Shown here: positions 45,074 to 55,393 of the stretch, piece after piece
Layout: each line of letters begins with the position of its first letter
How positions within the stretch are numbered: the stretch's first letter is position 1
Origin: Acidobacteriota bacterium
GTDB taxonomy: Bacteria; Acidobacteriota; Aminicenantia; Aminicenantales; Saccharicenantaceae
Assembly: GCA_039683095.1 (NCBI GenBank)
Contig: JBDKSB010000012.1
Span: 929,846 to 993,845 of the forward strand
Length of the DNA stretch: 64,000 nt
Reading direction: 5' to 3'
The notes under the pieces: model-generated
What the model saw: only the letters and a program-made list of their open reading frames with translations
The model's database searches: none
What the model was told of the DNA's origin: nothing
Made by a program: the position numbers and the translations under genes

Positions 45074-45085
45074 CTTCGGCCTCCT

Positions 45086-45181
45086 AAAATGGGGGACATG
45101 ATACCCGTTTCCTGTTTTCTCGCCTGTCGAAAAGGCGGGATATGACGCCGATTCCTGATCCTCCCGGAATGATATCATAGC
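45086..45181 (-). repeat. Composite repeat element, copy A (~95 bp): full unit, degenerate unit, partial unit. Lies in the GH127 5' region and includes that gene's SD-proximal sequence.
   Basis: 45086-45119 aaaatgggggacatgatacccgtttcctgttttc. 45130-45155 aaaaggcgggatatgacgccgattcc. 45161-45181 ctcccggaatgatatcatagc. The reverse complement aligns with the composites at 52144-52216 and 55312-55380. Confidence 0.7.
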
Positions 45182-45387: not shown

Positions 45388-47088
45388 ATGCCCATGAAAG
45401 CCGCGAAGTACGCCCTCGGCCTCGACTTCGGCACAAACTCGGTCCGGGCCCTTGTCGTCAACATCGGCAACGGCGACGAGGTCGGCACGGCGATCTTCGA
45501 CTACCCCGGCGGCTCCGCCGGCATCCTGCTCGATCCGAAAGACGCCAACCTGGCCCGGCAGAACCCGGCCGACTGGATCCTGGGCATCGAGAAGACCGTC
45601 CCGGCCGCCCTGGCCGCGGCGAAAAAGAAGGTCAAGGGCTTCGACCCTGCGGCCGTCGTCGGCGTCGGCGTCGACACGACCGGCTCGACGCCTCTGCCGC
45701 TCGATCGGGCCGGCAAGCCCCTCGCTCTCTATAAGGAATTCCGAAAGAACCTCAACGCCCAGGCCTGGCTGTGGAAGGACCATACCGCCCACGCCGAGGC
45801 GGCCGAGATCACCGCCCTGGCCGCGGCCGAACACCCCGAGTACCTGGCCAAGTGCGGCGGCACCTATTCCTCCGAGTGGTTCTGGAGCAAGATCCTCCAC
45901 TGCCTGCGGACGGATCCCAAGGTGGCCGCGGCCGCCTACTCCTGGGCCGAATGCGCCGACTACATCCCGGCCCTCATGACGGGCTCGACCGATCCTCTCC
46001 GGATGAAGCGCAGCCGTTGCGCCGCCGGCCACAAGGCCATGTTCAACGACGCCTGGGGCGGCCTGCCGGCCAAGGCCTTCCTGGCCAAGCTCGATCCGCG
46101 TCTGGGCGAGCTCCGCGACCGCCTCTACCAAAAGACCTTCACGTCCGACGTCCCGGCCGGCGGCCTGACCAAGGACTGGGCCAGGAAGCTGGGCCTCCGC
46201 CCCGGCATCGCCGTGGCCGTCGGCGCCTTCGACGCCCACCTCGGCGGCATCAGCTCCGGCGTCGAGACCGGCCGCTTCGTCAAGATCATCGGCACCAGCA
46301 CCTGCGACATCTGCGTCTGGCCCGCTTCCAAGAAGCTGCCCGATATCCCGGGCCTGTGCGGCATCGTCGACGGCTCGGTCCTGCCCGGCTACCTCGGGCT
46401 CGAGGCCGGCCAGTCCGCCGTCGGCGACATCTTCAACTGGTTCGTCAACGTCATCGAGCCCGGCGGTCCGAAGAAGGGCTCGCACGCCGTCCTGACCCGG
46501 GGCGCGGCGGCCCTCAAGCCCGGCGAATCGGGCCTCCTGGCCCTCGACTGGCTCAACGGCAACCGGACCGTCCTCGTCGACCAGCGCCTGACGGGCCTCA
46601 TCGTCGGCCTGACCCTGCACACCACGCCGGCCGAGATCTACCGGGCCCTCATCGAGGCCACGGCCTTCGGCGCCCTGACCATAATCCGGCGCTTCGAGGA
46701 GTACGGCGTCCAGATCCGCGACGTCGTCAACTGCGGCGGCATCGCCGAGAAGAACCCGCTGGTCATGCAGATCTACGCCGACGTCACCGGCCTGGAGATG
46801 AAGATCGCCCGCTCGAGCCAGACTTGCGCCCTGGGCGCGGCCATGGCCGGGGCCGTCGCGGCCGGACGCCCGGGCGGCGGCCACGCGACCTTCGCCGAGG
46901 CCCAGGCCGCCATGGGCGGGATCAAGCGCACGGTCTACAAACCCGACGGCGCCCGCCACAAGGTCTACCTCGAGCTCTTCGCCCTCTATCGCGAGCTCCA
47001 CGACGCCTTCGGCACGAAGGCCTGGAGCGGCAGCCTCTATAACGTGATGAAGGACCTGCTGGCCCTCAAGGACCTCCAGAGGAGGTAG
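45388..47088 (+). CDS. araB: Ribulokinase
   Basis: FGGY kinase with AraB-specific length (~565 aa). N-terminus YALGLDFGTNSVRALVV, C-terminus ...GAAMAGAVAAG. GGAGG is upstream; the second ATG at 45394 is the more likely true start. Confidence 0.9.
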   Translation: MPMKAAKYALGLDFGTNSVRALVVNIGNGDEVGTAIFDYPGGSAGILLDPKDANLARQNPADWILGIEKTVPAALAAAKKKVKGFDPAAVVGVGVDTTGSTPLPLDRAGKPLALYKEFRKNLNAQAWLWKDHTAHAEAAEITALAAAEHPEYLAKCGGTYSSEWFWSKILHCLRTDPKVAAAAYSWAECADYIPALMTGSTDPLRMKRSRCAAGHKAMFNDAWGGLPAKAFLAKLDPRLGELRDRLYQKTFTSDVPAGGLTKDWARKLGLRPGIAVAVGAFDAHLGGISSGVETGRFVKIIGTSTCDICVWPASKKLPDIPGLCGIVDGSVLPGYLGLEAGQSAVGDIFNWFVNVIEPGGPKKGSHAVLTRGAAALKPGESGLLALDWLNGNRTVLVDQRLTGLIVGLTLHTTPAEIYRALIEATAFGALTIIRRFEEYGVQIRDVVNCGGIAEKNPLVMQIYADVTGLEMKIARSSQTCALGAAMAGAVAAGRPGGGHATFAEAQAAMGGIKRTVYKPDGARHKVYLELFALYRELHDAFGTKAWSGSLYNVMKDLLALKDLQRR

Positions 47089-47091
47089 CCG

Positions 47092-47790
47092 ATGCTGGCC
47101 GAGCTCAAGGAATCCGTCTGGAAGGCCAATCTGGACCTGGCCAGGTCCGGCCTGGTCATCCTGACCTTCGGCAACGTCAGCGGCATCGACCGGCGCCGGG
47201 GCATCGTGGCCATCAAGCCGAGCGGCGTCCCCTACGACGCCATCAAGGCCGACGACATAGTGCTCGTCGACCTCGAAGGCGGCGTCGTCGAGGGCTGGCT
47301 CAGCCCCTCGTCGGACACGCCGACGCATGTCGAGCTCTACAGGGCCTTCCCGGGGATCGGGGGCATCACCCACGCCCACAGCCCCTACGCGACCATGTTC
47401 GCCCAGGCGAAGCGGGAGATCCCCTGTTATGGGACGACCCACGCCGACCAGTTCCACGGCCCCGTGCCCCTCACCAGGCCGCTCGGCGAGCCCGAGATCG
47501 CCGGGGCCTACGAGCGGAACACGGGCCAGGTCATCGTCGAGCGCTTCGCCGGGCTCGAGGCGCTCGAGTGTCCGGCCGTCCTCGTGGCCGGCCACGGGCC
47601 CTTCACCTGGGGCCGGACCCCGGCCGAGGCCGTCGAGACGGCCATCGTTCTCGAGCAGGTCGCCCACACGGCCTTCGGCTCGGTCATCATCGAGCCCCGG
47701 CTCGACCCCCTGGACGCGTGCCTCCAGGAAAAGCATTTCCGCAGGAAGCACGGGCCCGACGCCTATTACGGACAAAAGAAGGAGGAATGA
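47092..47790 (+). CDS. araD: L-ribulose-5-phosphate 4-epimerase (class II aldolase fold)
   Basis: 232 aa with motifs GNVSGIDR and THAHSPYATMFAQA. It sits 3 nt after araB. Confidence 0.9.
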   Translation: MLAELKESVWKANLDLARSGLVILTFGNVSGIDRRRGIVAIKPSGVPYDAIKADDIVLVDLEGGVVEGWLSPSSDTPTHVELYRAFPGIGGITHAHSPYATMFAQAKREIPCYGTTHADQFHGPVPLTRPLGEPEIAGAYERNTGQVIVERFAGLEALECPAVLVAGHGPFTWGRTPAEAVETAIVLEQVAHTAFGSVIIEPRLDPLDACLQEKHFRRKHGPDAYYGQKKEE

Positions 47791-47792
47791 TC

Positions 47793-49271
47793 ATGACCAA
47801 CATCCCGAAGGTCCGCCTCGGCCTGGTCGCCGTCAGCCGCGACTGCTTCCCCATCGAGCTTTCCCGCAAGCGCTCCCTCCGCGTGGCGGAGGAATGCCGC
47901 AAGCTCGGCGTGTCCGTCACGCGCATCCCGACCGTCGTCGAGAACGAGAAGGACGCCCTCCAGGCGCTCGAGGAGCTGCGGGACAAGAAGATCAACGCCC
48001 TGGTCATCTATCTGGGCAACTTCGGCCCGGAGACGCCGACGACCATCCTGGCCCAGAAGTTCGACGGCCCGGTCATGGTCGTCGCCGCCGCCGAGGAGTC
48101 GGGCAAGGACCTCGTCGACGGGCGCGGCGACGCCTACTGCGGCATGCTCAACAACTCCTACAGCATGGGCCTGCGCCGGCTCCGGCCCTACGTGCCGGAA
48201 TACCCGGTCGGCCTGCCCGAGGAAGCGGCCGGGATGATCGCCGATTTCGTGCCTGTCGCCCGGATCCTGCTCGGCCTGGCCAAGCTCAAGGTCTTCTCTT
48301 TCGGGCCGCGGCCGCAGGATTTCCTGGCCTGCAACGCCCCGATCAAGCCGCTCTACGACCTCGGCGTCGAGATCATGGAGAACAGCGAGCTCGACCTCTA
48401 CGACATCTTCCGCAAGTCCGAGGGCGATCCGAAGGTCAAGGCGGTCGCGGCGGACATAGCCAGGGAGCTGGGTGCCGGGAACGCCTATCCCGGCATCCTG
48501 AACAAGCTGGCCCAGTTCGAAGTCGCGCTGCTCAAGTTCATGGAAGGGAACCTCGGCGCCTCGGAGTTCGGCATCTTCGCCGACAAGTGCTGGCCGGCCT
48601 TCGAGAGCTTCTTCGGCTTCGTCCCCTGCTACGTCAACTCGCGGCTGGCGGCCCGGGGCATCCCGGTCGCCTGCGAGGTCGACATCTACGGCGCGCTGAG
48701 CGAGTACATCGCCACCTGCGCCACGGAGTTGCCGGCCACGATCCTCGACATCAACAACACCGTCCCCTACGACATGATCGCCGGGGCCAGGAAGGCGATC
48801 AAGGGCTACAAGCCCTCCGACCTGTTCATGGGCTTCCACTGCGGCAATACGCCGGCCGGGTGCCTGGTCAACCCGGCCATGGGCTACCAGCTGATCATGC
48901 ACCGGCTCCAGGAGCCGGGCAAGGAGCCCGACATCACCCGGGGGACGGTCGAGGGGCGGATCAAGGCGGGCGGCGTGACCATTTTCCGCCTCCAGTCGAC
49001 CGCCGACACTGTCCTGCGGTCCTACATGGCCGAGGGCGAGGTCCTGGACGTCGATCCGAAGTCGTTCGGCGGGATCGGGGTCATCGCCGTCAAGGAGATG
49101 GGCCGGTTCTACCGCCACGTCCTCGTCGAGAAGCGCTTCCCCCACCACACGGCGGTGGCCTTCGCCCCGGCCGGCAAGACCCTGTGGGCGGCCATGCGCA
49201 TGCTCGGGGTCGAGGACATCGGCTTCAACCGCCCGGCCGGGATGCTCTACCCGACGGAGAATCCGTTCTAA
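47793..49271 (+). CDS. L-fucose-isomerase-family sugar isomerase occupying the araA position (putative L-arabinose isomerase analogue)
   Basis: Start ATG 47793 with AAGGAGG 9 nt upstream; the ORF-track start at 47568 adds an Arg/Gly leader. The N-terminus PKVRLGLVAVSRDCFPIELS is FucI-like and lacks the canonical AraA FWFVTGSQHLYG N-terminus. It immediately follows araD. Confidence 0.65.
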   Translation: MTNIPKVRLGLVAVSRDCFPIELSRKRSLRVAEECRKLGVSVTRIPTVVENEKDALQALEELRDKKINALVIYLGNFGPETPTTILAQKFDGPVMVVAAAEESGKDLVDGRGDAYCGMLNNSYSMGLRRLRPYVPEYPVGLPEEAAGMIADFVPVARILLGLAKLKVFSFGPRPQDFLACNAPIKPLYDLGVEIMENSELDLYDIFRKSEGDPKVKAVAADIARELGAGNAYPGILNKLAQFEVALLKFMEGNLGASEFGIFADKCWPAFESFFGFVPCYVNSRLAARGIPVACEVDIYGALSEYIATCATELPATILDINNTVPYDMIAGARKAIKGYKPSDLFMGFHCGNTPAGCLVNPAMGYQLIMHRLQEPGKEPDITRGTVEGRIKAGGVTIFRLQSTADTVLRSYMAEGEVLDVDPKSFGGIGVIAVKEMGRFYRHVLVEKRFPHHTAVAFAPAGKTLWAAMRMLGVEDIGFNRPAGMLYPTENPF

Positions 49272-49346
49272 AAAATGGGGGACACGATACCTATTTCCTA
49301 TTTTCGCCGGCACCGATAATTAGGAAATAGGTATCGTGTCCCCCTA
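49271..49346. terminator. Bidirectional intrinsic terminator with a perfect 24-bp stem (two inverted repeat units) between convergent araA and the M28 peptidase
   Basis: 49277-49300 GGGGGACACGATACCTATTTCCTA pairs with 49321-49344 TAGGAAATAGGTATCGTGTCCCCC across a 20-nt loop. An A6 tract lies upstream. The T-rich tract TAATTTTCTTAATTTTC lies downstream on the plus strand, and TTTTTT on the minus strand. Confidence 0.7.
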
Positions 49347-49360
49347 ATTTTCTTAATTTT

Positions 49361-50935
49361 CTAGCTGCGGCCGCGCTGCGGCGCCGGCGCGTTGGCGTCG
49401 AAGTATTTCCGCGGCAGCTTCTGGTCGCGCATGGCGGCATTGTAGACGAACCAGGCCATGACCGTGGCCGCCTGCATCAGGTCGGGGCGGGACAGGTGGT
49501 CGTAGACGTCCATGGTCGAGTGGTGCGTCAGAGTGTCGTACTCGAGATCGTCCTGGATGAACTGGAAGCCGGGCAGCCCGACGCCGTCGAACGGCAGGTG
49601 GTCCGTGCCGCCCGTGTTCCGCAGGACCACGGTCCCGGCGCCGAGATCGCGCACGGGCCTGAGCCATTCCTCGAAGATGGGCACGACGGCGCTGTTGCCC
49701 TGGGCGTAGATGCCGCGGATCTTGCCGCTGCCATTGTCGAAATTGAAGTAGGCCGAGAGCTTGTCGTATTCCGGCTTCTTCTCCTTCTTCGCCCGGTCGA
49801 AGAAATGGTTCGCGACATAGCCGCGCGAGCCGACGAAGCCCTGTTCCTCCGCGTCCCAGAAAGCCATGCGGATGGTGCGCCGGGGCTGGACGCCGAGCGC
49901 CTTCAGGATGCGCATGGCCTCGAAGGCGACGGCGCAGCCGGCCCCGTCGTCCGTGGCCCCCGTGCCGCCGTGCCAGGTGTCGAAGTGGCCGCCGAGCATG
50001 ACCAGCTCGGCCTTGAGCTTGGGGTCGGCGCCGGGGATCTCGGCGACGACGTTCGTGCCCGGCAGATCGTCGGCCGTGAACCGGGCCTGGACCTCGACCT
50101 CGAGCGTGACCGGGACGTTCTTCTGGATAATGCGGACGATGCGGTTGTACTGCTCCGTGGCGACGGCGATCGCGGGAACGGGCGTCTCCGCGCCCTTGGT
50201 CCGCGAGCCGCCGGCGGCGACAAAGACCGTGCCGAACTTGCCCCGGCCGGGATCGAGGATGACGCCCACGCCCTCGGCCTTGAGCATCTTCTGGATGGCC
50301 TGCTGGACCTGCGCCCGGGCCATCATGTCCTGCATCTGCGGGGCCTGGGGCCGCCGGGCGTACGGATCGGGTGCCAGCATGAGCTTCTCGAGATCGGGCC
50401 CGGCCAGGCGCGAGGCCATCGGGTCGAACGAGATCGGCAGGTCCTGCTCGCCCTGCAGCAGGACGATGGCGTCCTTGAGCTTGCCCTTGTACTGGTCGAG
50501 GTCGGCCACGGTCTTGGCCTGGATCAGGACGGCCTGCCCCTTGAGGAGGCCGTTCGTCCCGGGCGTCCAGGCCTTGGGATAGCCGACGATGGGCATGTAC
50601 TGAGGCTCGGTCATGGCGGCGTAGAACTTCAGGAGCTCCCAGCTGCGGCCGAACGTGCCGTAGGGCTCCATGGCCGCGTTGGCCAGGCCGATCTCCCTGG
50701 CTTTGCCGACAACCCACTCGCCGGCCTTGACGTACTGGGGCGAGTCGGGCAGCCGCGGCCCGTAGACGTCGCAGAGATAGACCAGGAAATCGCTGATCTT
50801 GGAGTTGTTCAGGCCCTCGGCGCGGATGCGGTCGAGCATCTGCAGGTCGAGCTTCTCCTGGGCGAAGGCCCCGAGCGAGAACAGGACGACCAGGAGAGCG
50901 AGGACCAGCGAACGGAAGGCCAGGTGTTTTTTCAT
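49361..50935 (-). CDS. M28-family peptidase with a PA domain (secreted aminopeptidase)
   Basis: Signal peptide MKKHLAFRSLVLALLVVLFSLGAFAQ. M28 motifs LGGHFDTWHGGTGATDDGAGCAV, WDAEEQGFVGS and GTDHLPF. Confidence 0.85.
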   Translation of the reverse strand: MKKHLAFRSLVLALLVVLFSLGAFAQEKLDLQMLDRIRAEGLNNSKISDFLVYLCDVYGPRLPDSPQYVKAGEWVVGKAREIGLANAAMEPYGTFGRSWELLKFYAAMTEPQYMPIVGYPKAWTPGTNGLLKGQAVLIQAKTVADLDQYKGKLKDAIVLLQGEQDLPISFDPMASRLAGPDLEKLMLAPDPYARRPQAPQMQDMMARAQVQQAIQKMLKAEGVGVILDPGRGKFGTVFVAAGGSRTKGAETPVPAIAVATEQYNRIVRIIQKNVPVTLEVEVQARFTADDLPGTNVVAEIPGADPKLKAELVMLGGHFDTWHGGTGATDDGAGCAVAFEAMRILKALGVQPRRTIRMAFWDAEEQGFVGSRGYVANHFFDRAKKEKKPEYDKLSAYFNFDNGSGKIRGIYAQGNSAVVPIFEEWLRPVRDLGAGTVVLRNTGGTDHLPFDGVGLPGFQFIQDDLEYDTLTHHSTMDVYDHLSRPDLMQAATVMAWFVYNAAMRDQKLPRKYFDANAPAPQRGRS

Positions 50936-51065
50936 GGGACGCTCCTTTGTACCGGTCTCGGGGACTATACGCCCGCGGCCGCGGCCTTGTCAAAACACGG
51001 CCGGGACGGACGGCCGCCCGGGACGCTTCCCGGCGGGCCCCGACCTGCTTTATAATGAAGGGACC

Positions 51066-52103
51066 ATGAAAGCGGCTTTCCTGACAGGCGTCCGGACGAT
51101 CGAGATCCGCGACATCCCGGCGCCCCGGCTCGTCCGCGACGACGACGTCATCGTCCGGAGCCGGGCCGTCGGCGTCTGCGGCAGCGACCTCCACTACTAC
51201 CTCTCCAACAAGGTCGGCGGCGACCAGGTCAAGTACCCCTTCATCCCGGGCCACGAGTGCGCCGGCGTCGTCGAGGAGGTCGGTCGGTCCGTGACCAGGG
51301 TCAGGCCGGGCGACCAGGTCGTGGTCGAGCCGGCCGTCTCGTGCGGTACGTGCGACCAGTGCCGGACCGGACGGCCCCACACCTGCCGCAAGCTCCTCTT
51401 CCTCGGCCACTACGGCGAGCTCACCGGCGGCATGGCCGAGCTCGTCCTGGCCCCGGAACGCAACTGCGTGCCGCTGCCGGCGAAAATGACCGCCGTCCAG
51501 GGCGCGCTGGCCGAGCCCCTGTCGATCGGGCTTTACGCGGCCGGGTTAGCCGGCTCGGTAAGGGGGAAGACGGCGGCGGTGCTCGGGACCGGGCCGATCG
51601 GGCTGTGCGTCATCATGGCCCTGAAGGCGGACGGCGCGGGCGCGGTCTACGCCACGGAGAAGGTCGAGGCCCGGCGGACGGCGGCCGCCGAGAAGGCGGG
51701 AGCCGATTGGACGGGGGATCCGGGCGCCGAGGACGTCGTGGCCGAGACCGCGGCCCGCGAGTCCCTCGGCCTCGACCTCGTCTTCGAGTGCTGCGGCGAG
51801 CAGCCGGCCCTCGACCAGGCGGTCGCCCTGCTCAAGCCCGGCGGGACGCTCGTCGTCGTGGGCATCCCCCTCGAGCCGCGCGTCTCCTTCGACAGCTCCA
51901 GGGTCCGCCGGCGCGAGATCCGGATCCAGAACGTCCGGCGCCAGAACAGGTGCCTGGAGCGGGCCGTGGGCATGATCCACGCGGGCCGGATCCCGGTGGA
52001 TTTCCTGGCCACGCATTCCTTCGGCCTCGGCCAGGCCGGAGAAGCCTACGAAACGGCGGCGGCCCGCCGCGACGGCGTGATCAAGGCCATCGTCAGGCCG
52101 TAG
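51066..52103 (+). CDS. Zn-dependent medium-chain alcohol/polyol dehydrogenase (sorbitol or threonine dehydrogenase-like)
   Basis: Start re-assigned to ATG 51066. Motifs GVCGSDLHYY, GHECAGVVEEVG and GxGxxG LGTGPIGL. Confidence 0.85.
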   Translation: MKAAFLTGVRTIEIRDIPAPRLVRDDDVIVRSRAVGVCGSDLHYYLSNKVGGDQVKYPFIPGHECAGVVEEVGRSVTRVRPGDQVVVEPAVSCGTCDQCRTGRPHTCRKLLFLGHYGELTGGMAELVLAPERNCVPLPAKMTAVQGALAEPLSIGLYAAGLAGSVRGKTAAVLGTGPIGLCVIMALKADGAGAVYATEKVEARRTAAAEKAGADWTGDPGAEDVVAETAARESLGLDLVFECCGEQPALDQAVALLKPGGTLVVVGIPLEPRVSFDSSRVRRREIRIQNVRRQNRCLERAVGMIHAGRIPVDFLATHSFGLGQAGEAYETAAARRDGVIKAIVRP

Positions 52104-52143: not shown

Positions 52144-52216
52144 AAAAAAGGTAACATGTCCCGGCTTTTTCCCGGGCGGGAAAATGGGGAACAGGTATCA
52201 TGTCCCGCATTTTGTC
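52144..52216 (+). repeat. Composite repeat element, copy B (~73 bp), between convergent ADH and DUF2075 3' ends; terminator-like
   Basis: Reads aaaaaaGGTAACATGTCCCGGCtttttcccgggcGGGAAAATGGGGAACAGGTATCATGTCCCGCATTTTgtc. The second hairpin AUGGGGAACA / UGUCCCGCAU pairs 8 of 10 positions, is flanked by A4 and U4, and has GACAAAA / TTTTGTC termini. Confidence 0.7.
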
Positions 52217-52232: not shown

Positions 52233-54209
52233 TCAGATCTCTCTGAAGCCGATCCCTCTGAGATATTCGAACGTCGGGTCGTAGAAGGACGGCTGGCGCG
52301 TCGGATCGTCCCGGTCCCCCGGCGGCACGACGATGACCATGCCCTGGCGCGCCCGCGTCAGGAGAACGCGGTAGGCGTTCTTCTGGTACTTCTGCCTCTC
52401 GGAATCCCTGATGTTCCGCCAGGCGTCTCCCAGGAACGACTTGTGCGTCCACCCCGTTCGCGAATATCGAAAATCCGCGTCCCAGGTGACGCAGGCCCAA
52501 TCGAGCTCCAGGCCCTGGACATCGAATTCCGTGGCCACGTCCTCCAGGTAGTAGGACGACCGCACATCCTGCTTGCCGTCGAGGAACCAATGGACCGGAT
52601 CCATCGGTGCCTTGACATGGATGGCGTGAGGCCGGAGACGCTCCGCTTGCGAGGAGACCACGATGCCGTATCGCTCGGTCCCCCGCGCCTGGGCCTTGAG
52701 CCACGATTTGGCCTGGCCGAGGTCGCGGGTGATGGCGATCGGATATCTGTCCCGCAGCTCGGCCAGGGTCCGGCGCGCCCCCGCGTCGTCCAGGTCCAGG
52801 ACCTGCTTGACCAGAAGGGACACGTTCTCGGCCCGGAAGGAGCGCATGGATACGGCCAGGTGAAGCGAGGGGACGAAGCTGACGTGCCGTCGGGGCTCCA
52901 GCTGCTCGAGAACCCTCCCGGCGCCGTATTCGCTGTCCGTCAGCTGGGGAGAGATGAAGACGCGCCAGTCGGGAAAAGACCGCGTCAGGGAATCGATCCA
53001 TTCGGAGATCCCGGCCTCGCCCCGGTTGATCTCCTGCCCTCCTCCGACGAGGCAGATAACGACGGCCCAATCCGGGTGCCGATCGAGGCAGGAGATCAGG
53101 AACTCGGGCTCCGAAAATCGGAAGCCCGGCCTTTTCTTCTTGCGCTTCATGAAATCCGCGGTCATGCCGCTGTTCCAGGCCCGTTGGGCTTCGTCGAACA
53201 GGGCCACATGATCGACCGGGGGGCGCTTCTCGTCGACAAGACACTCGTCCCGGAAATGATGGACGTTCTGGATGAAGGCCTTGACCCGGCTCTTGGCTTC
53301 GCCTTTCTTGATCCTTTTGCCATGGGCCTTCGTCCGGACGACCATATCACGGGCCAGGGCCTCCTGGAGGATCTTGACCAGCGGGCCGTTCCCGGACAGG
53401 AAGACGCTGTGGTGCGCGTCGGCCTGATCCATATGCTCCGTCGCGACGTTGAGACCGACCAGGGTCTTGCCCGCCCCGGGCACGCCGGTGACGAAGCAGA
53501 TGGATTTGTGCGCCCGCGCCTTGGCGTCTTGAATGACCTTCGAGATCGCGTTCGTCGTCTGGCTGAGATTGACGGCCCCGGCGTCGCTGCGGGATATTTC
53601 GGCGACCGAGTGGCTTCGGTAAAGCGCCAGGGCCGCTTCCATGATGGTGGGCGTCGGGCTGTATCGGCCGGTCTTCCATGTTCGCCAATCGATCTTTTCT
53701 CCGTCGGCGAAGTCCAGCACGCCCTGGATGACTTCGCCAAGCGCCTCCCCGTCGGTTTTCAGGGGAAGCAGGACGTTGTCGTTCCGGGGAGTCAGGGCGA
53801 TGCCCGGCGGAACGCGCCCGGCGCCGGTCGCGATCAGAACGGGCGCGACGAGATGATCGTGGCTGGTTTCATGGAAATTCTTCAGGTCCAGGGCATAATC
53901 CATAACCTGGTCGAGGGCATAGGACGCGAATTCCCTGGCTCCGACCTTGAATTCCAGGACGAAGATGACCGGCCCGATGACGAGCAGGACGTCAATCCGC
54001 TCCCCCATGCGGGGGATGGAGTACTCGAAGTGGATGCCCCCCGAACGGGACCCCAGCGCCGCGCGGAGGATCCCGATCTCCGCGACCCAGGCGGCGCGTT
54101 GCTCGAGCGTGTCGGGGAAGTCGCTGGCCAGCGCCAGCTTCCCGACGATCTCCTCGGTCGAGGACCGGAGGAAGGCGGCGATCGTATCGGAGTAGTATTC
54201 GCGCTTCAC
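52233..54209 (-). CDS. DUF2075-type protein: N-terminal PD-(D/E)xK nuclease-like domain plus a P-loop (SF1 helicase-like) ATPase; Nhi-like architecture
   Basis: 658 aa. N-terminal [22 protein letters not shown] (D...E.K). Walker [16 protein letters not shown]-terminal helicase-like region ending [16 protein letters not shown]. The start overlaps the upstream gene stop as ATGA. Confidence 0.75.
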
Positions 54210-54652
54210 TTCATCCGCTCGCGCATCTTGGCCTCGTTCGCGGCGGGCCAGTAGCCGCAGTCGAGCTCGAGGAAGACCGTGGTGTAGGGAACGGCCACGG
54301 TCGTCTTGACCATGATGATCTTGAAGGTCCGGCCGGCCTGATCCAGCTTGGCGATGAGGTCCTCGCGGAGGATAGGCTGGGCGCCGCGGCCGTCCAGCAT
54401 CCTGTCGAGCCGGCGCTTCGTCTCGTCCGCGCCGGGGGCCAGGTCCTCCGTGACATACGCCGGCTCCTTATCCAGCCAGATCTTCTGGCGGACGTGCCGG
54501 GCCCCGTCGACGGCCTTGAGCACCTTGTCGAGGACGGCAAAGTGGTCATCGCCGGTGACGATGGTTTCGATGCCCGGGCTGATCTGGAGCGGGAAGGCCG
54601 AGTCGGCGACGAGGAGCATGACGATCCCGCTAATGGCCAGGGCGTTGCGCAC
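54206..54652 (-). CDS. Hypothetical protein (148 aa) co-transcribed with the DUF2075 gene
   Basis: Reasonable composition and an N-terminal hydrophobic segment [17 protein letters not shown]. It is translationally coupled to DUF2075 by an ATGA overlap. The alternative frame 54211-54678 is low complexity and was rejected. Confidence 0.45.
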
Positions 54653-54674
54653 GGGTCCTTCTCTTCCTTTCGTC

Positions 54675-55103
54675 TCATCCGGCCAGGAGCCGGTAGGCCG
54701 CCTTGATCGGGGTGCCGCCCTTGAGCATGGCCCAGACGGGGCAGAATCGCTCTTCCGACAGGGCCAGGGCCTTCTCTACCGAGGCGCCGTCGAGCTTCCC
54801 GCCCCGGAACTCGAACTCGAGCTCGATCGACGCGAGGACCTTCGGGTGGATCTCTTTCTTGGCCCCGCGGGCGCGGACGGTCAGGTCCTTGACCTCCTGT
54901 CCCATCCGCTTGAGGAGGCCGACGACGACCTGGCCGCTGCAGCCGGCCAGGCTGGCGAGCAGGAGCTCGAGCGGCGAGAAGCCGTCGATGAGCTGGTCGT
55001 CGGCCGCGAAGTCGAGGGCCACCGTCCGGCCGGCCCGGCCGGAGACCCCGTCGAACCTCATCCCGCCCCTGAAGACGACATCGGACCGGATCTCTTCGGC
55101 CAT
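54675..55103 (-). CDS. OsmC/Ohr-family peroxiredoxin-like protein
   Basis: 142 aa with paired Cys motifs LAGCSGQ and FCPVWAM typical of OsmC. Confidence 0.85.
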   Translation of the reverse strand: MAEEIRSDVVFRGGMRFDGVSGRAGRTVALDFAADDQLIDGFSPLELLLASLAGCSGQVVVGLLKRMGQEVKDLTVRARGAKKEIHPKVLASIELEFEFRGGKLDGASVEKALALSEERFCPVWAMLKGGTPIKAAYRLLAG

Positions 55104-55311
55104 GGGCTCGCTCCTGTTGTCGCCGTCCGCGGGACGGCCGTTCGCCCGGCAGTATCCAACGAGTGGAGGCGCTCTGTCAACCCGGGCCGGCGGGGAGAAT
55201 AGTGGGGCGCCCGGGATCGGGATAAGCGCCGGGGAAGCCGGACCGGCGGAACGGGCCGGCGGCCGCGGTCAGGCCTTGGGCGGGCCGGGAGCGGACGACG
55301 GGCGAATAATT

Positions 55312-55393
55312 AAAAAAGTATCATTCCCGGCTTGTTATCAGGCGGGAAAATGGGAAACGGGTATCGTGTCCCCCATTTTAATCCCCCATTTTA
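55312..55393 (+). repeat. Composite repeat element, copy C (~80 bp), between the hybrid-kinase 3' end and the OsmC operon 5' end
   Basis: Reads aaaaaaGTATCATTCCCGGCttgttatcaggcGGGAAAATGGGAAACGGGTATCGTGTCCCCCATTTTAatCCCCCATTTTAgg. It aligns position by position with copy B and with the reverse complement of copy A. Confidence 0.7.

Follow-up and report, generated by a model that had tools for sequence, protein, structure and literature searches.

The window analysed here, a 64,000-nucleotide stretch of an Acidobacteriota genome, contains three minus-strand genes between two copies of an intergenic repeat, and the last of these encodes a protein with nuclease and helicase motifs. This arrangement raises the question of whether the three genes form one small defence or stress operon, or whether the nuclease-helicase gene is an independent addition to a resident locus. 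We favour the latter, with a probability of roughly 0.75: the 658-aa gene would be a stand-alone, horizontally acquired anti-phage nuclease-helicase of the Nhi-like/PDC-S41 family, inserted immediately behind the stop codon that ends a resident RbsD/FucU-like gene, in a housekeeping block conserved among Aminicenantes.

All three open reading frames described in the initial annotation were recovered (Table 1), but of the set claimed to be translationally coupled, only the last two frames overlap. The 148-aa and 658-aa frames overlap by 4 nt, and the overlap reads GTGA, with the GTG start at 54209-54207 and the TGA stop at 54208-54206, instead of the ATGA reported previously. The OsmC and 148-aa frames do not overlap and are separated by a 22-nt spacer that contains an AGGAAG Shine-Dalgarno-like sequence. 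The sole ATGA at the OsmC stop is part of an alternative-frame ORF (54211-54678), the translation of which resembles GC-rich sequence read in the wrong frame; this ORF was rejected as the true middle gene since homologues back the GTG-start frame. The promoter-like site upstream of OsmC matches 10 of 12 consensus positions and is one of four such sites in the region, compared with 0.5 expected. Co-transcription of the three frames in this genome is plausible.

Table 1. Features of the nuclease-helicase locus (positions within the window).
Feature	Position	Strand	Description
OsmC/YhfA-family gene	54675-55103	minus	142 aa; resident; Pfam OsmC match
RbsD/FucU-like lipoprotein gene	54206-54652	minus	148 aa; resident; 144-nt in-frame internal deletion
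Nhi-like/PDC-S41 nuclease-helicase gene	52233-54209	minus	658 aa; GTG start; single-gene defence candidate
N-terminal nuclease domain	53670-54209	minus	about aa 1-180; E62, D73, E86-x-K88, Q101-xxx-Y105
SF1 helicase-like NTPase domain	52323-53507	minus	aa 235-629; Walker A GVPGAGKT 242-249, Walker B DEAQ 339-342, motif-VI-like 613-623
Sigma-70-like promoter match TTGACA-18-GATACT	55151-55180	minus	about 50 nt upstream of OsmC ATG; consensus match only
Dispersed intergenic repeat, copy B	52155-52213	minus	directly 3' of helicase stop, between convergent helicase and ADH genes
Dispersed intergenic repeat, copy C	55325-55380	minus	directly 3' of upstream response-regulator/histidine-kinase gene; upstream of OsmC promoter-like site

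The evidence supports an architecture for the 658-aa protein in which a PD-(D/E)xK nuclease is followed by a DUF2075/Schlafen-type SF1 helicase-like NTPase. The DUF2075 assignment was borne out by a match of aa 235-629 to positions 1-353 of the 354 in PF09848 (the former DUF2075, now SLFN-g3_helicase), which with 278.2 bits (E = 1.5e-82) lies above the 24-bit gathering threshold over the whole domain. The protein has the Walker A, Walker B (DExx) and arginine-finger motif VI of SF1 helicases along with two RecA-like domains, while its N-terminal part has the alpha-beta-beta-beta-alpha-beta core of the PD-(D/E)xK superfamily with acidic residues and a lysine in the order D...(D/E)xK. The motifs quoted earlier are present and conserved among 50 homologues: RIDV (D73) and LEFK (E86 and K88) are invariant, and within GVPGAGKT the one variable position is A246, retained by at least 90% of the homologues. 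The AF2 model of the helicase part is of moderate confidence only (mean pLDDT 70.7, with aa 520-567 below 50), and the fold matches are generic SF1/SF2 helicases. In PDB, Foldseek found nothing beyond weak similarity to generic helicases (TM < 0.3), a family-profile sequence search yielded only P-loop-level chance matches (Zeta toxin, SK channel), and NCBIfam has no model for the 658-aa or the 148-aa protein.

The closest family description is the PADLOC profile PDC-S41 (PDLC05014), which is listed as a phage defence candidate and matches the protein end to end (aa 1-658 to profile positions 1-653 of 657, 931 bits, E = 8.6e-281), with no difference from it at the sequence level. The name PDC-S41 was not found in a literature search; PDC systems were derived from guilt-by-embedding in BREX, DISARM and RM systems (Payne et al. 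2024 preprint, 10.1101/2024.01.29.577857). Nhi-like is an experimentally verified one-gene anti-phage defence (Millman 2022, 10.1101/2022.05.11.491447), and the 399-aa fragment of the verified protein given in the supplement of that study is 27% identical to the window protein (E = 1e-38) and matches the PDC-S41 HMM at 8.8e-76. As a full-length proxy we used a B. cereus plasmid protein that is 95% identical to the verified one; it matches PDC-S41 at 1.6e-116 and aligns to aa 37-637 of the window protein with 28% identity (E = 1e-60), with FEY, RPDILL, IECK, GEPGAGKT and FDEAQRAW conserved between the two. Since the verified Nhi-like protein is likewise recognised by this HMM, PDC-S41 and Nhi-like seem to be two names for one family, which is of use for annotation. 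Judged from these alignments, the 658-aa protein and the verified protein of B. cereus FSL H8-0482 are homologous over their full length, in a family with one verified anti-phage member, so the label "Nhi-like" was literally correct.

The resemblance to the B. cereus prototype (system SG141, 611 aa) extends to the one-gene organization, the order of nuclease and DUF2075 helicase, the nearly full-length alignment and the retained nuclease and Walker A/B motifs. In addition, the homologue table of the Nhi-like authors includes Salinimicrobium species, and a Salinimicrobium homologue found here shares 59% identity with the window protein. However, the window protein exceeds the prototype by 47 aa, has insertions in the helicase domain (e.g. 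aa 290-312) and belongs to a separate, unusually conserved clade (57-81% identity), which comes mostly from uncultured lineages, spans many phyla and reaches into the CPR. With no more than 27-28% identity to the verified protein, it may not share that protein's activity and, above all, its trigger (modification dependence). It is doubtful, if conceivable, that this clade is functionally distinct within the Nhi-like family, with expression in Aminicenantes apparently obligatorily coupled to translation of a short upstream ORF remnant and with a trigger or substrate that could differ from the prototype, such as another DNA modification or a replication intermediate.

Identity with Nhi proper (SERP2475 of S. 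epidermidis) was rejected, since the PADLOC Nhi HMM (PDLC02372) matches only about 45 residues at the P-loop (aa 217-261, E = 7.7e-4); Nhi and Nhi-like are also reported to share no sequence identity (Millman 2022, 10.1101/2022.05.11.491447). Nhi likewise combines an N-terminal PD-(D/E)xK nuclease and an SF1 helicase that overlaps DUF2075 in one polypeptide, and as a protein that degrades phage DNA (Bari et al. 2022) it is a plausible functional analogue. The protein is unlike the Schlafen group III proteins (SLFN5/11/13), the N-terminal nuclease of which has a different fold, unlike Upx and Hna, which have other helicase types and sizes, and unlike McrBC, which is a two-protein GTPase system.

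The OsmC assignment was confirmed by the Pfam profile (60.7 bits against a cut-off of 27.5, E = 1.9e-16); the conserved cysteines Cys55 (AGCSG) and Cys121 (FCPV) are present, and NCBIfam PRK10738 matches at E = 2e-16, under its equivalog cut-off. The 148-aa partner, previously regarded as uncharacterized, has more than 1,100 homologues in a family of RbsD/FucU-like lipoproteins, almost all of which are about 196 aa long. The window copy has lost 48 internal residues, equivalent to AAAAC...LGHRNWIVV and including the lipobox cysteine. Intact 196-aa homologues score 23.4-26.7 bits with PF05025 (cut-off 25), whereas the window copy, in which the LGHRNWIVV segment is missing, has no match.

Comparisons within Aminicenantes placed these genes in a block of conserved order, consisting of a two-component system, OsmC, the FucU-like gene, ADH, an M28 peptidase and fucose genes. 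The helicase gene is present at this site in the window and in the relatives L070 and L090-L095, and absent from L084-L089, in which OsmC and the FucU-like gene occupy the same place. The MAG contigs L088 and L090, one empty and one filled, are identical over 7,591 nt and diverge exactly after the TGA of the FucU-like gene. The indel is about 2.06 kb in size and, in the window and its relatives, contains a single gene and no integrase, transposase or other mobile-element genes; it provides a clean natural case in which empty and filled sites can be matched for a one-gene defence insertion. The stretch between OsmC and ADH is variable in other respects as well: relatives carry either a VapBC pair (L092) or an opposite-strand ORF of 144-154 aa between OsmC and the FucU-like gene, and a ParE/RHH pair is located directly downstream of the helicase in L070, so that toxin-antitoxin pairs occur inside this stretch in two relatives. 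Three helicase carriers (the window, L094 and L070) have a deleted or decayed FucU-like gene. Its last 10 or so codons and the GTGA overlap nevertheless persist in all Aminicenantes carriers, including those in which the remainder of the gene has decayed, as in L070 and L094, where the helicase junction is retained with remnants of 13 codons and 40 aa, respectively. On synteny, OsmC and the FucU-like gene are bystanders resident in a conserved Aminicenantes locus.

Outside this group, the distribution of the helicase is patchy and incongruent with phylogeny. A collection with one genome per species yielded at least 596 loci, and identities within the clade were 57-81% across Omnitrophota, Bacteroidota, Planctomycetota, Chloroflexota, Proteobacteria, CPR and others. 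GC3 of the gene is 0.84 versus 0.93-0.98 in its neighbours, which together with the high identity over many phyla fits horizontal transfer. Within Aminicenantes, the gene is found at one fixed locus with a divergence similar to that of the flanks. Long vertical residence with occasional loss would also fit this pattern. Relatives are furthermore found on 47 plasmids, in 20 IMG/VR contigs, often close to the contig ends, and in one phage-collection record. None of the 79 loci from other phyla had an OsmC or FucU-like gene within 10 kb of the helicase, and no recurrent neighbour family was observed at a fixed position in 80 helicase loci. Like the one-gene Nhi-like system, it has no conserved partner gene in these 80 loci. 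Some plasmid copies adjoin Shedu, or McrBC and a methyltransferase. In other phyla, the genes directly beside it are for the most part unrelated or housekeeping genes, with defence or toxin-antitoxin-like genes in a minority, and no recognised defence genes adjoin the 658-aa gene in the window. The neighbourhood HMM survey gives family counts over all loci together, not enrichment per locus.

The claim that copies B and C of the repeat bracket the genes is correct as to position, but the repeat is neither operon-specific nor an insertion boundary. The two copies have the same orientation and are 85% identical over 55 nt, a match not equalled in any of 100 shuffles. Within the window, the repeat occurs five times, spread over four intergenic sites from 45 to 55.4 kb; it is also present in at least 120 metagenome stretches, and no copies were detected around the helicase locus in the relatives scanned, L070 and L084-L091. 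As ends of a mobile cassette, the copies were rejected since the breakpoint of the indel is at the FucU-like stop codon and the family is dispersed and widespread.

With these data the competing explanations can be weighed. That the OsmC, 148-aa and DUF2075 proteins work together as a defence or stress module of three genes that moves as a repeat-bounded cassette is suggested by the tight packing on one strand (22-nt spacer, 4-nt overlap), the single promoter-like site upstream and the repeats at both ends. However, the two neighbours stay in place where the helicase is missing, are split by VapBC or an opposite-strand gene in relatives, accompany the helicase in none of the 79 other loci, and one of them is deleted or decayed in three carriers; moreover, the presence/absence breakpoint does not coincide with the repeats, which form a high-copy dispersed family absent from around the gene in L070 and L084-L091. 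We consider this explanation highly improbable. Because the helicase is a single-gene insertion beside two unrelated resident genes, there is no three-gene operon of this kind, and the OsmC-linked module can be removed as a false lead.

Nor do we find it likely that the protein is a housekeeping nuclease-helicase of DNA repair or recombination, comparable to AddAB, RecD or Dna2, and not an immune protein. Its best structural matches are the repair helicases and nucleases AdnB, Rep, RecD and NucS, its position in Aminicenantes is fixed, its conservation is very high for a defence gene and many of its neighbours elsewhere are housekeeping genes. Yet it varies in presence at the strain level on otherwise identical DNA, several Aminicenantes lineages have empty sites, and its patchy distribution, atypical GC3, plasmid copies adjoining Shedu or McrBC, relatives on viral contigs and one experimentally anti-phage family member all argue against such a role. 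The viral and plasmid relatives, and the toxin-antitoxin genes near the locus in other Aminicenantes, could alternatively indicate a gene that serves mobile elements, for instance in competition between prophages or plasmids, in superinfection exclusion or in replication, the chromosomal copies being remnants of such elements. The lack of any mobile-element gene in the single-gene indel makes this improbable, and it overlaps with, and does not exclude, a defence gene carried by mobile elements.

For a stand-alone Nhi-like defence gene, a mechanism may be proposed in which the SF1 DUF2075 motor uses ATP to bind foreign DNA and to translocate on it or unwind it (Walker A K248, DEAQ 339-342), and so brings the N-terminal NucS/NERD-like PD-(D/E)xK nuclease (E62, D73, E86, K88) to that DNA for cutting. 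Phages evade Nhi-like through loss of a phage methylase (10.1101/2022.08.27.505566), and by analogy with this B. cereus homologue, recognition may depend on modification of the phage DNA, as in Type IV restriction. The helicase is probably expressed via translational coupling to the upstream ORF, as suggested by the junction kept in every Aminicenantes carrier. Phage resistance is the candidate function, and a likely immune function can be assigned to a gene of an uncultured Aminicenantes genome. The family itself was already known, and the mechanistic questions are the same as those posed for Nhi-like proteins, with none added.

We also examined the repeat copies for structure. Neither a simple terminator scan nor an Rfam scan of 44-56.5 kb called the repeats as terminators or as members of a credible family, respectively. 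Copy B forms two small hairpins followed by a T-run, which was not scored as a canonical terminator. For copies A, B and C, RNA folding gave unremarkable z-scores, and only the palindromic copy at 49.3 kb was strongly structured (z = -9).

The 658-aa protein matched Pfam PF09848, the former DUF2075 and now the "Schlafen group 3 DNA/RNA helicase domain", over residues 235-629 (E = 1.5e-82). In PADLOC-DB it matched the PDC-S41 model (PDLC05014) end to end, with residues 1-658 aligned to profile positions 1-653 of 657 (E = 8.6e-281), whereas the models for S. epidermidis-type Nhi and for AbiO matched only about 45 residues around the helicase P-loop. Alignments of 19 and of 50 homologues identified E62, D73 (RIDV), E86-x-K88 (LEFK) and Q101-xxx-Y105 as invariant, including the predicted nuclease catalytic residues E62, D73, E86 and K88, while Walker A (G242-T249), Walker B (D339-E-A-Q342) and a motif-VI-like segment (residues 613-623) were also conserved. 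The mean pLDDT of an AlphaFold2 model was 70.7, with values of about 85 for the N-terminal 180 residues and poor values for residues 520-567, and the modelled N-terminal domain had an alpha-beta-beta-beta-alpha-beta topology. Foldseek gave weak agreement with RecD and Upf1, and the N-terminal domains of 3 of 5 homologues yielded sub-threshold matches to Pfam NERD. Since the Pfam and PADLOC matches, the conserved residues and the predicted fold agree, the initial annotation was correct in reading the protein as an N-terminal nuclease joined to a Walker A-containing DUF2075 helicase. In NCBI, the source protein goes by the name ABFD52_12030-adjacent.

PDC systems, for "phage defence candidates", go back to genes found inside BREX, DISARM or type I RM loci (10.1101/2024.01.29.577857). 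The "Nhi-like" system of Millman et al. consists of one gene, with an N-terminal nuclease and a DUF2075 domain, and has according to these authors no sequence identity to Nhi of S. epidermidis (10.1101/2022.05.11.491447), for which nuclease and bipolar helicase activities have been demonstrated biochemically (10.1101/776245). The verified Nhi-like protein is SG141 from Bacillus cereus FSL H8-0482, of 611 aa (supplement to 10.1101/2022.05.11.491447). A 399-residue fragment of it matched PDC-S41 with E = 8.8e-76 versus only 6e-7 for the PADLOC Nhi model, and was 27% identical to the window protein (E = 1e-38). As a full-length proxy we used WP_173602619.1 from B. cereus HD2.4, 95% identical to SG141 over that fragment, which matched PDC-S41 over its full length (E = 1.6e-116) and was 28% identical to residues 37-637 of the window protein (E = 1e-60), in an alignment that pairs the motifs of both the nuclease and the NTPase. 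A tblastn search of plasmids with the window protein yielded 43 homologues on Bacillus megaplasmids, WP_173602619.1 among them, which cover about 91% of the length and are about 27% identical. Because SG141, its proxy and the window protein share PDC-S41 and align with each other, the window protein is, judged by sequence, a member of the Nhi-like family, as first proposed, and not of Nhi proper. A single family seems to go under both names, "PDC-S41" and "Nhi-like", and the window protein is a new member of it from an uncultured Aminicenantes/Acidobacteriota genome. This redundancy in PADLOC deserves flagging; its "Nhi" model barely catches the verified Nhi-like protein (about 1e-6).

The helicase gene lies downstream of two other minus-strand ORFs, the first of which encodes an OsmC protein (Pfam, E = 1.9e-16), while a Pfam search with the 148-aa product of the middle ORF gave no match. 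All three had been described as translationally coupled, with an ATGA overlap between the last two. The middle ORF and the helicase ORF do overlap by 4 bases, but the sequence is GTGA, and the OsmC ORF is separated from the middle ORF by a 22-nt gap with an AGGAAG Shine-Dalgarno-like motif. The sole ATGA at the OsmC stop codon belongs to an alternative-frame ORF that may be the source of the earlier remark; we rejected this ORF, the R/S/P/A-rich translation of which resembles a GC-rich wrong frame.

Coordinates of features in the window and in related loci
Feature	Position	Strand	Remark
Repeat copy	45085-45144	+	intergenic
Fucose-utilisation cluster	45388-49271	+	
Fucose-utilisation cluster	49361-52103		
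Repeat inverted pair	49270-49351	both	intergenic, between convergent genes
Repeat copy B	52155-52213	-	just 3' of helicase
Helicase ORF	52233-54209	-	658 aa, GTG start
Middle ORF	54206-54652	-	148 aa, GTG start; 144-nt in-frame deletion
Retained codons and GTGA junction	54206-54240		end of middle ORF
Alternative-frame ORF	54211-54678	-	155 aa; ATGA overlap with OsmC stop codon; rejected
OsmC ORF	54675-55103	-	142 aa, ATG start
Repeat copy C	55325-55380	-	just 3' of RR-HK gene upstream
Middle-gene remnant	L094:4882-5004		40 aa
Middle-gene remnant	L070:9960-10003		13 codons
Nhi-like (SG141) comparison locus	L096:5881-7713		PDC-S41 (PDLC05014) against SG141
Hotspot example	L092:3748-4361		
Hotspot example	L070:11997-12512		
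Hotspot example	L088:7608-8471		

The three genes do not form the defence or stress module that had been suggested. A tblastn search of 80 helicase loci, including 10 kb on each side, for OsmC and the 148-aa protein gave hits confined to one other Aminicenantes locus, and even there to OsmC alone. Clustering of four neighbours per side at these loci revealed no recurrent partner gene, the largest cluster comprising 7 loci at scattered positions. The Aminicenantes genomes share a block of hydrogenase/complex-I genes, a response regulator, a 640-aa histidine kinase, RR-HK, OsmC and the RbsD/FucU-like middle gene, followed after a variable site by ADH, M28 peptidase, fucose isomerase, class II aldolase and FGGY kinase. 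The helicase is present in this block in the window and seven other loci (L090-L095 and L070), and missing from six (L084-L089) that keep the block, including OsmC and the FucU-like gene. Two loci from different MAGs, L088 and L090, encode an identical FucU-like protein and have 0 mismatches over 7,591 nt, up to a split right after the FucU-like TGA, beyond which L090 continues into a helicase (78% identity over 116 aa up to the contig end) and L088 into the end of a gene for a 287-aa membrane protein. The indel is about 2.06 kb in size, corresponding to the helicase ORF and about 100 nt (L088 versus L091). In the window, GC3 was 0.84 for the helicase versus 0.93-0.98 for the seven neighbours read in frame; the value for an eighth gene, RR-HK, came from a wrong frame and is uninformative. 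The empty and filled sites, the indel boundary, the GC3 values and the absence of partners elsewhere thus identify the helicase gene as an accessory gene inserted singly next to two resident genes, and the initial annotation combined a correct domain call with an incorrect operon model. The OsmC-ADH stretch in Aminicenantes is a small variable hotspot that, besides the helicase, contains VapBC, ParE/RHH, a membrane protein of the DUF1761 type, ORFs of 80 aa or the 287-aa membrane protein, depending on the genome. Between OsmC and the FucU-like gene, L092 contains a VapBC pair and six loci (L088-L091, L093 and L094) an opposite-strand ORF of 144-154 aa.

Two further explanations, a housekeeping repair enzyme and a function serving mobile elements, are less well supported than defence. 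The 149 immediate neighbours of the helicase loci were heterogeneous: a minority were defence/TA-like genes (GajB, cytosine methylases, PsyrT, DRT, MazE, YhcG, NERD, HNH), and many were housekeeping genes (tRNA synthetase, MurJ, MutS, SAM synthetase), as a repair enzyme might have. Relatives of the helicase were also found in 20 IMG/VR contigs, in one phage-collection record and on plasmids, where they adjoined Shedu in B. cereus and McrBC with a DNA methyltransferase in Exiguobacterium. In the probable defence role, an ATP-driven SF1 motor would load on foreign DNA, which the N-terminal PD-(D/E)xK domain would then cut; whether DNA is recognised may hinge on its modification in the phage, a dependence proposed for the B. 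cereus homologue.

A word-indexed search with the helicase returned at least 8,000 homologues, the best 120 of which were full-length, 67-96% identical and named from Aminicenantes, Omnitrophota, Bacteroidales, Chitinivibrionales and Acidobacteriota. A scan of a one-genome-per-species collection gave at least 596 loci, and the best 80 of these (57-79% identity to the window protein) came from Omnitrophota, Blastocatellia, Kiritimatiellota, Bacteroidota, Planctomycetota, Chloroflexota, Ignavibacteriota, Nitrospirota, Proteobacteria, Verrucomicrobiota, Rokubacteria and three CPR lineages (Paceibacterota, Moraniibacteriota and Kaiserbacteria), covering more than 15 phyla. The N-terminal domain alone retrieved 2,329 cluster representatives (243 at E <= 1e-30), and complete relatives, about 650-700 aa long, carry it N-terminally. 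The broad range at high identity indicates that horizontal transfer of the family has been frequent; such conservation, unusually strong for an immune gene, implies recent wide horizontal spread under purifying selection.

Homologues of the middle gene number more than 1,100 and are nearly all about 196 aa long; the intact ones show a lipoprotein signal (…LVAAAAC…) and match RbsD/FucU weakly, at 23-27 bits for a cut-off of 25. From the window copy 48 internal residues are missing, among them the lipobox cysteine and a conserved LGHRNWIVV segment, and the same 148-aa form was present in an independent Logan assembly. Since TCGTCGCC stands at both edges of the deleted segment in intact homologues, recombination between the two short repeats would fit this loss. 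Although its frame is open, the gene is probably inactivated. In L094 it is down to 40 aa and in L070 only the remnant MRQAEARMRERMK is left. The last ~10 codons (…EA(K/R)MRE(K/R)MK*) and the GTGA junction are kept in every Aminicenantes helicase carrier, and their persistence even where the rest of the gene is gone suggests that helicase translation is coupled, perhaps obligatorily, to the upstream frame. The neighbouring FGGY kinase, class II aldolase, fucose isomerase, M28 peptidase and Zn-ADH genes constitute a fucose-utilisation cluster, which makes a mutarotase-like native role, unrelated to defence, plausible for the FucU-like gene.

The repeat element (about 55-75 nt; AAAATGGGGGACAYGATACCYGTTYCCYATTTTCYCGCC…GGCGGGA) is AT-rich with two small hairpins, and five copies, all intergenic, lie within 10 kb, with essentially none in the remaining 54 kb of the window. 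Copies B and C flank the three ORFs on both sides, as reported initially, but they do not delimit the insertion: the flanking is real but generic, and the breakpoints of the indel are not at the repeats. A search against Rfam gave no match, and copies around OsmC or the helicase were not found in the related genomes checked, where copies occur instead at the M28/fucose-isomerase junction. The inverted pair at 49.3 kb forms a predicted hairpin of -50 kcal/mol (z = -9), the other copies fold unremarkably, and the position of this pair is conserved in related genomes. At least 120 metagenome stretches contain the repeat core, which often forms inverted pairs there.
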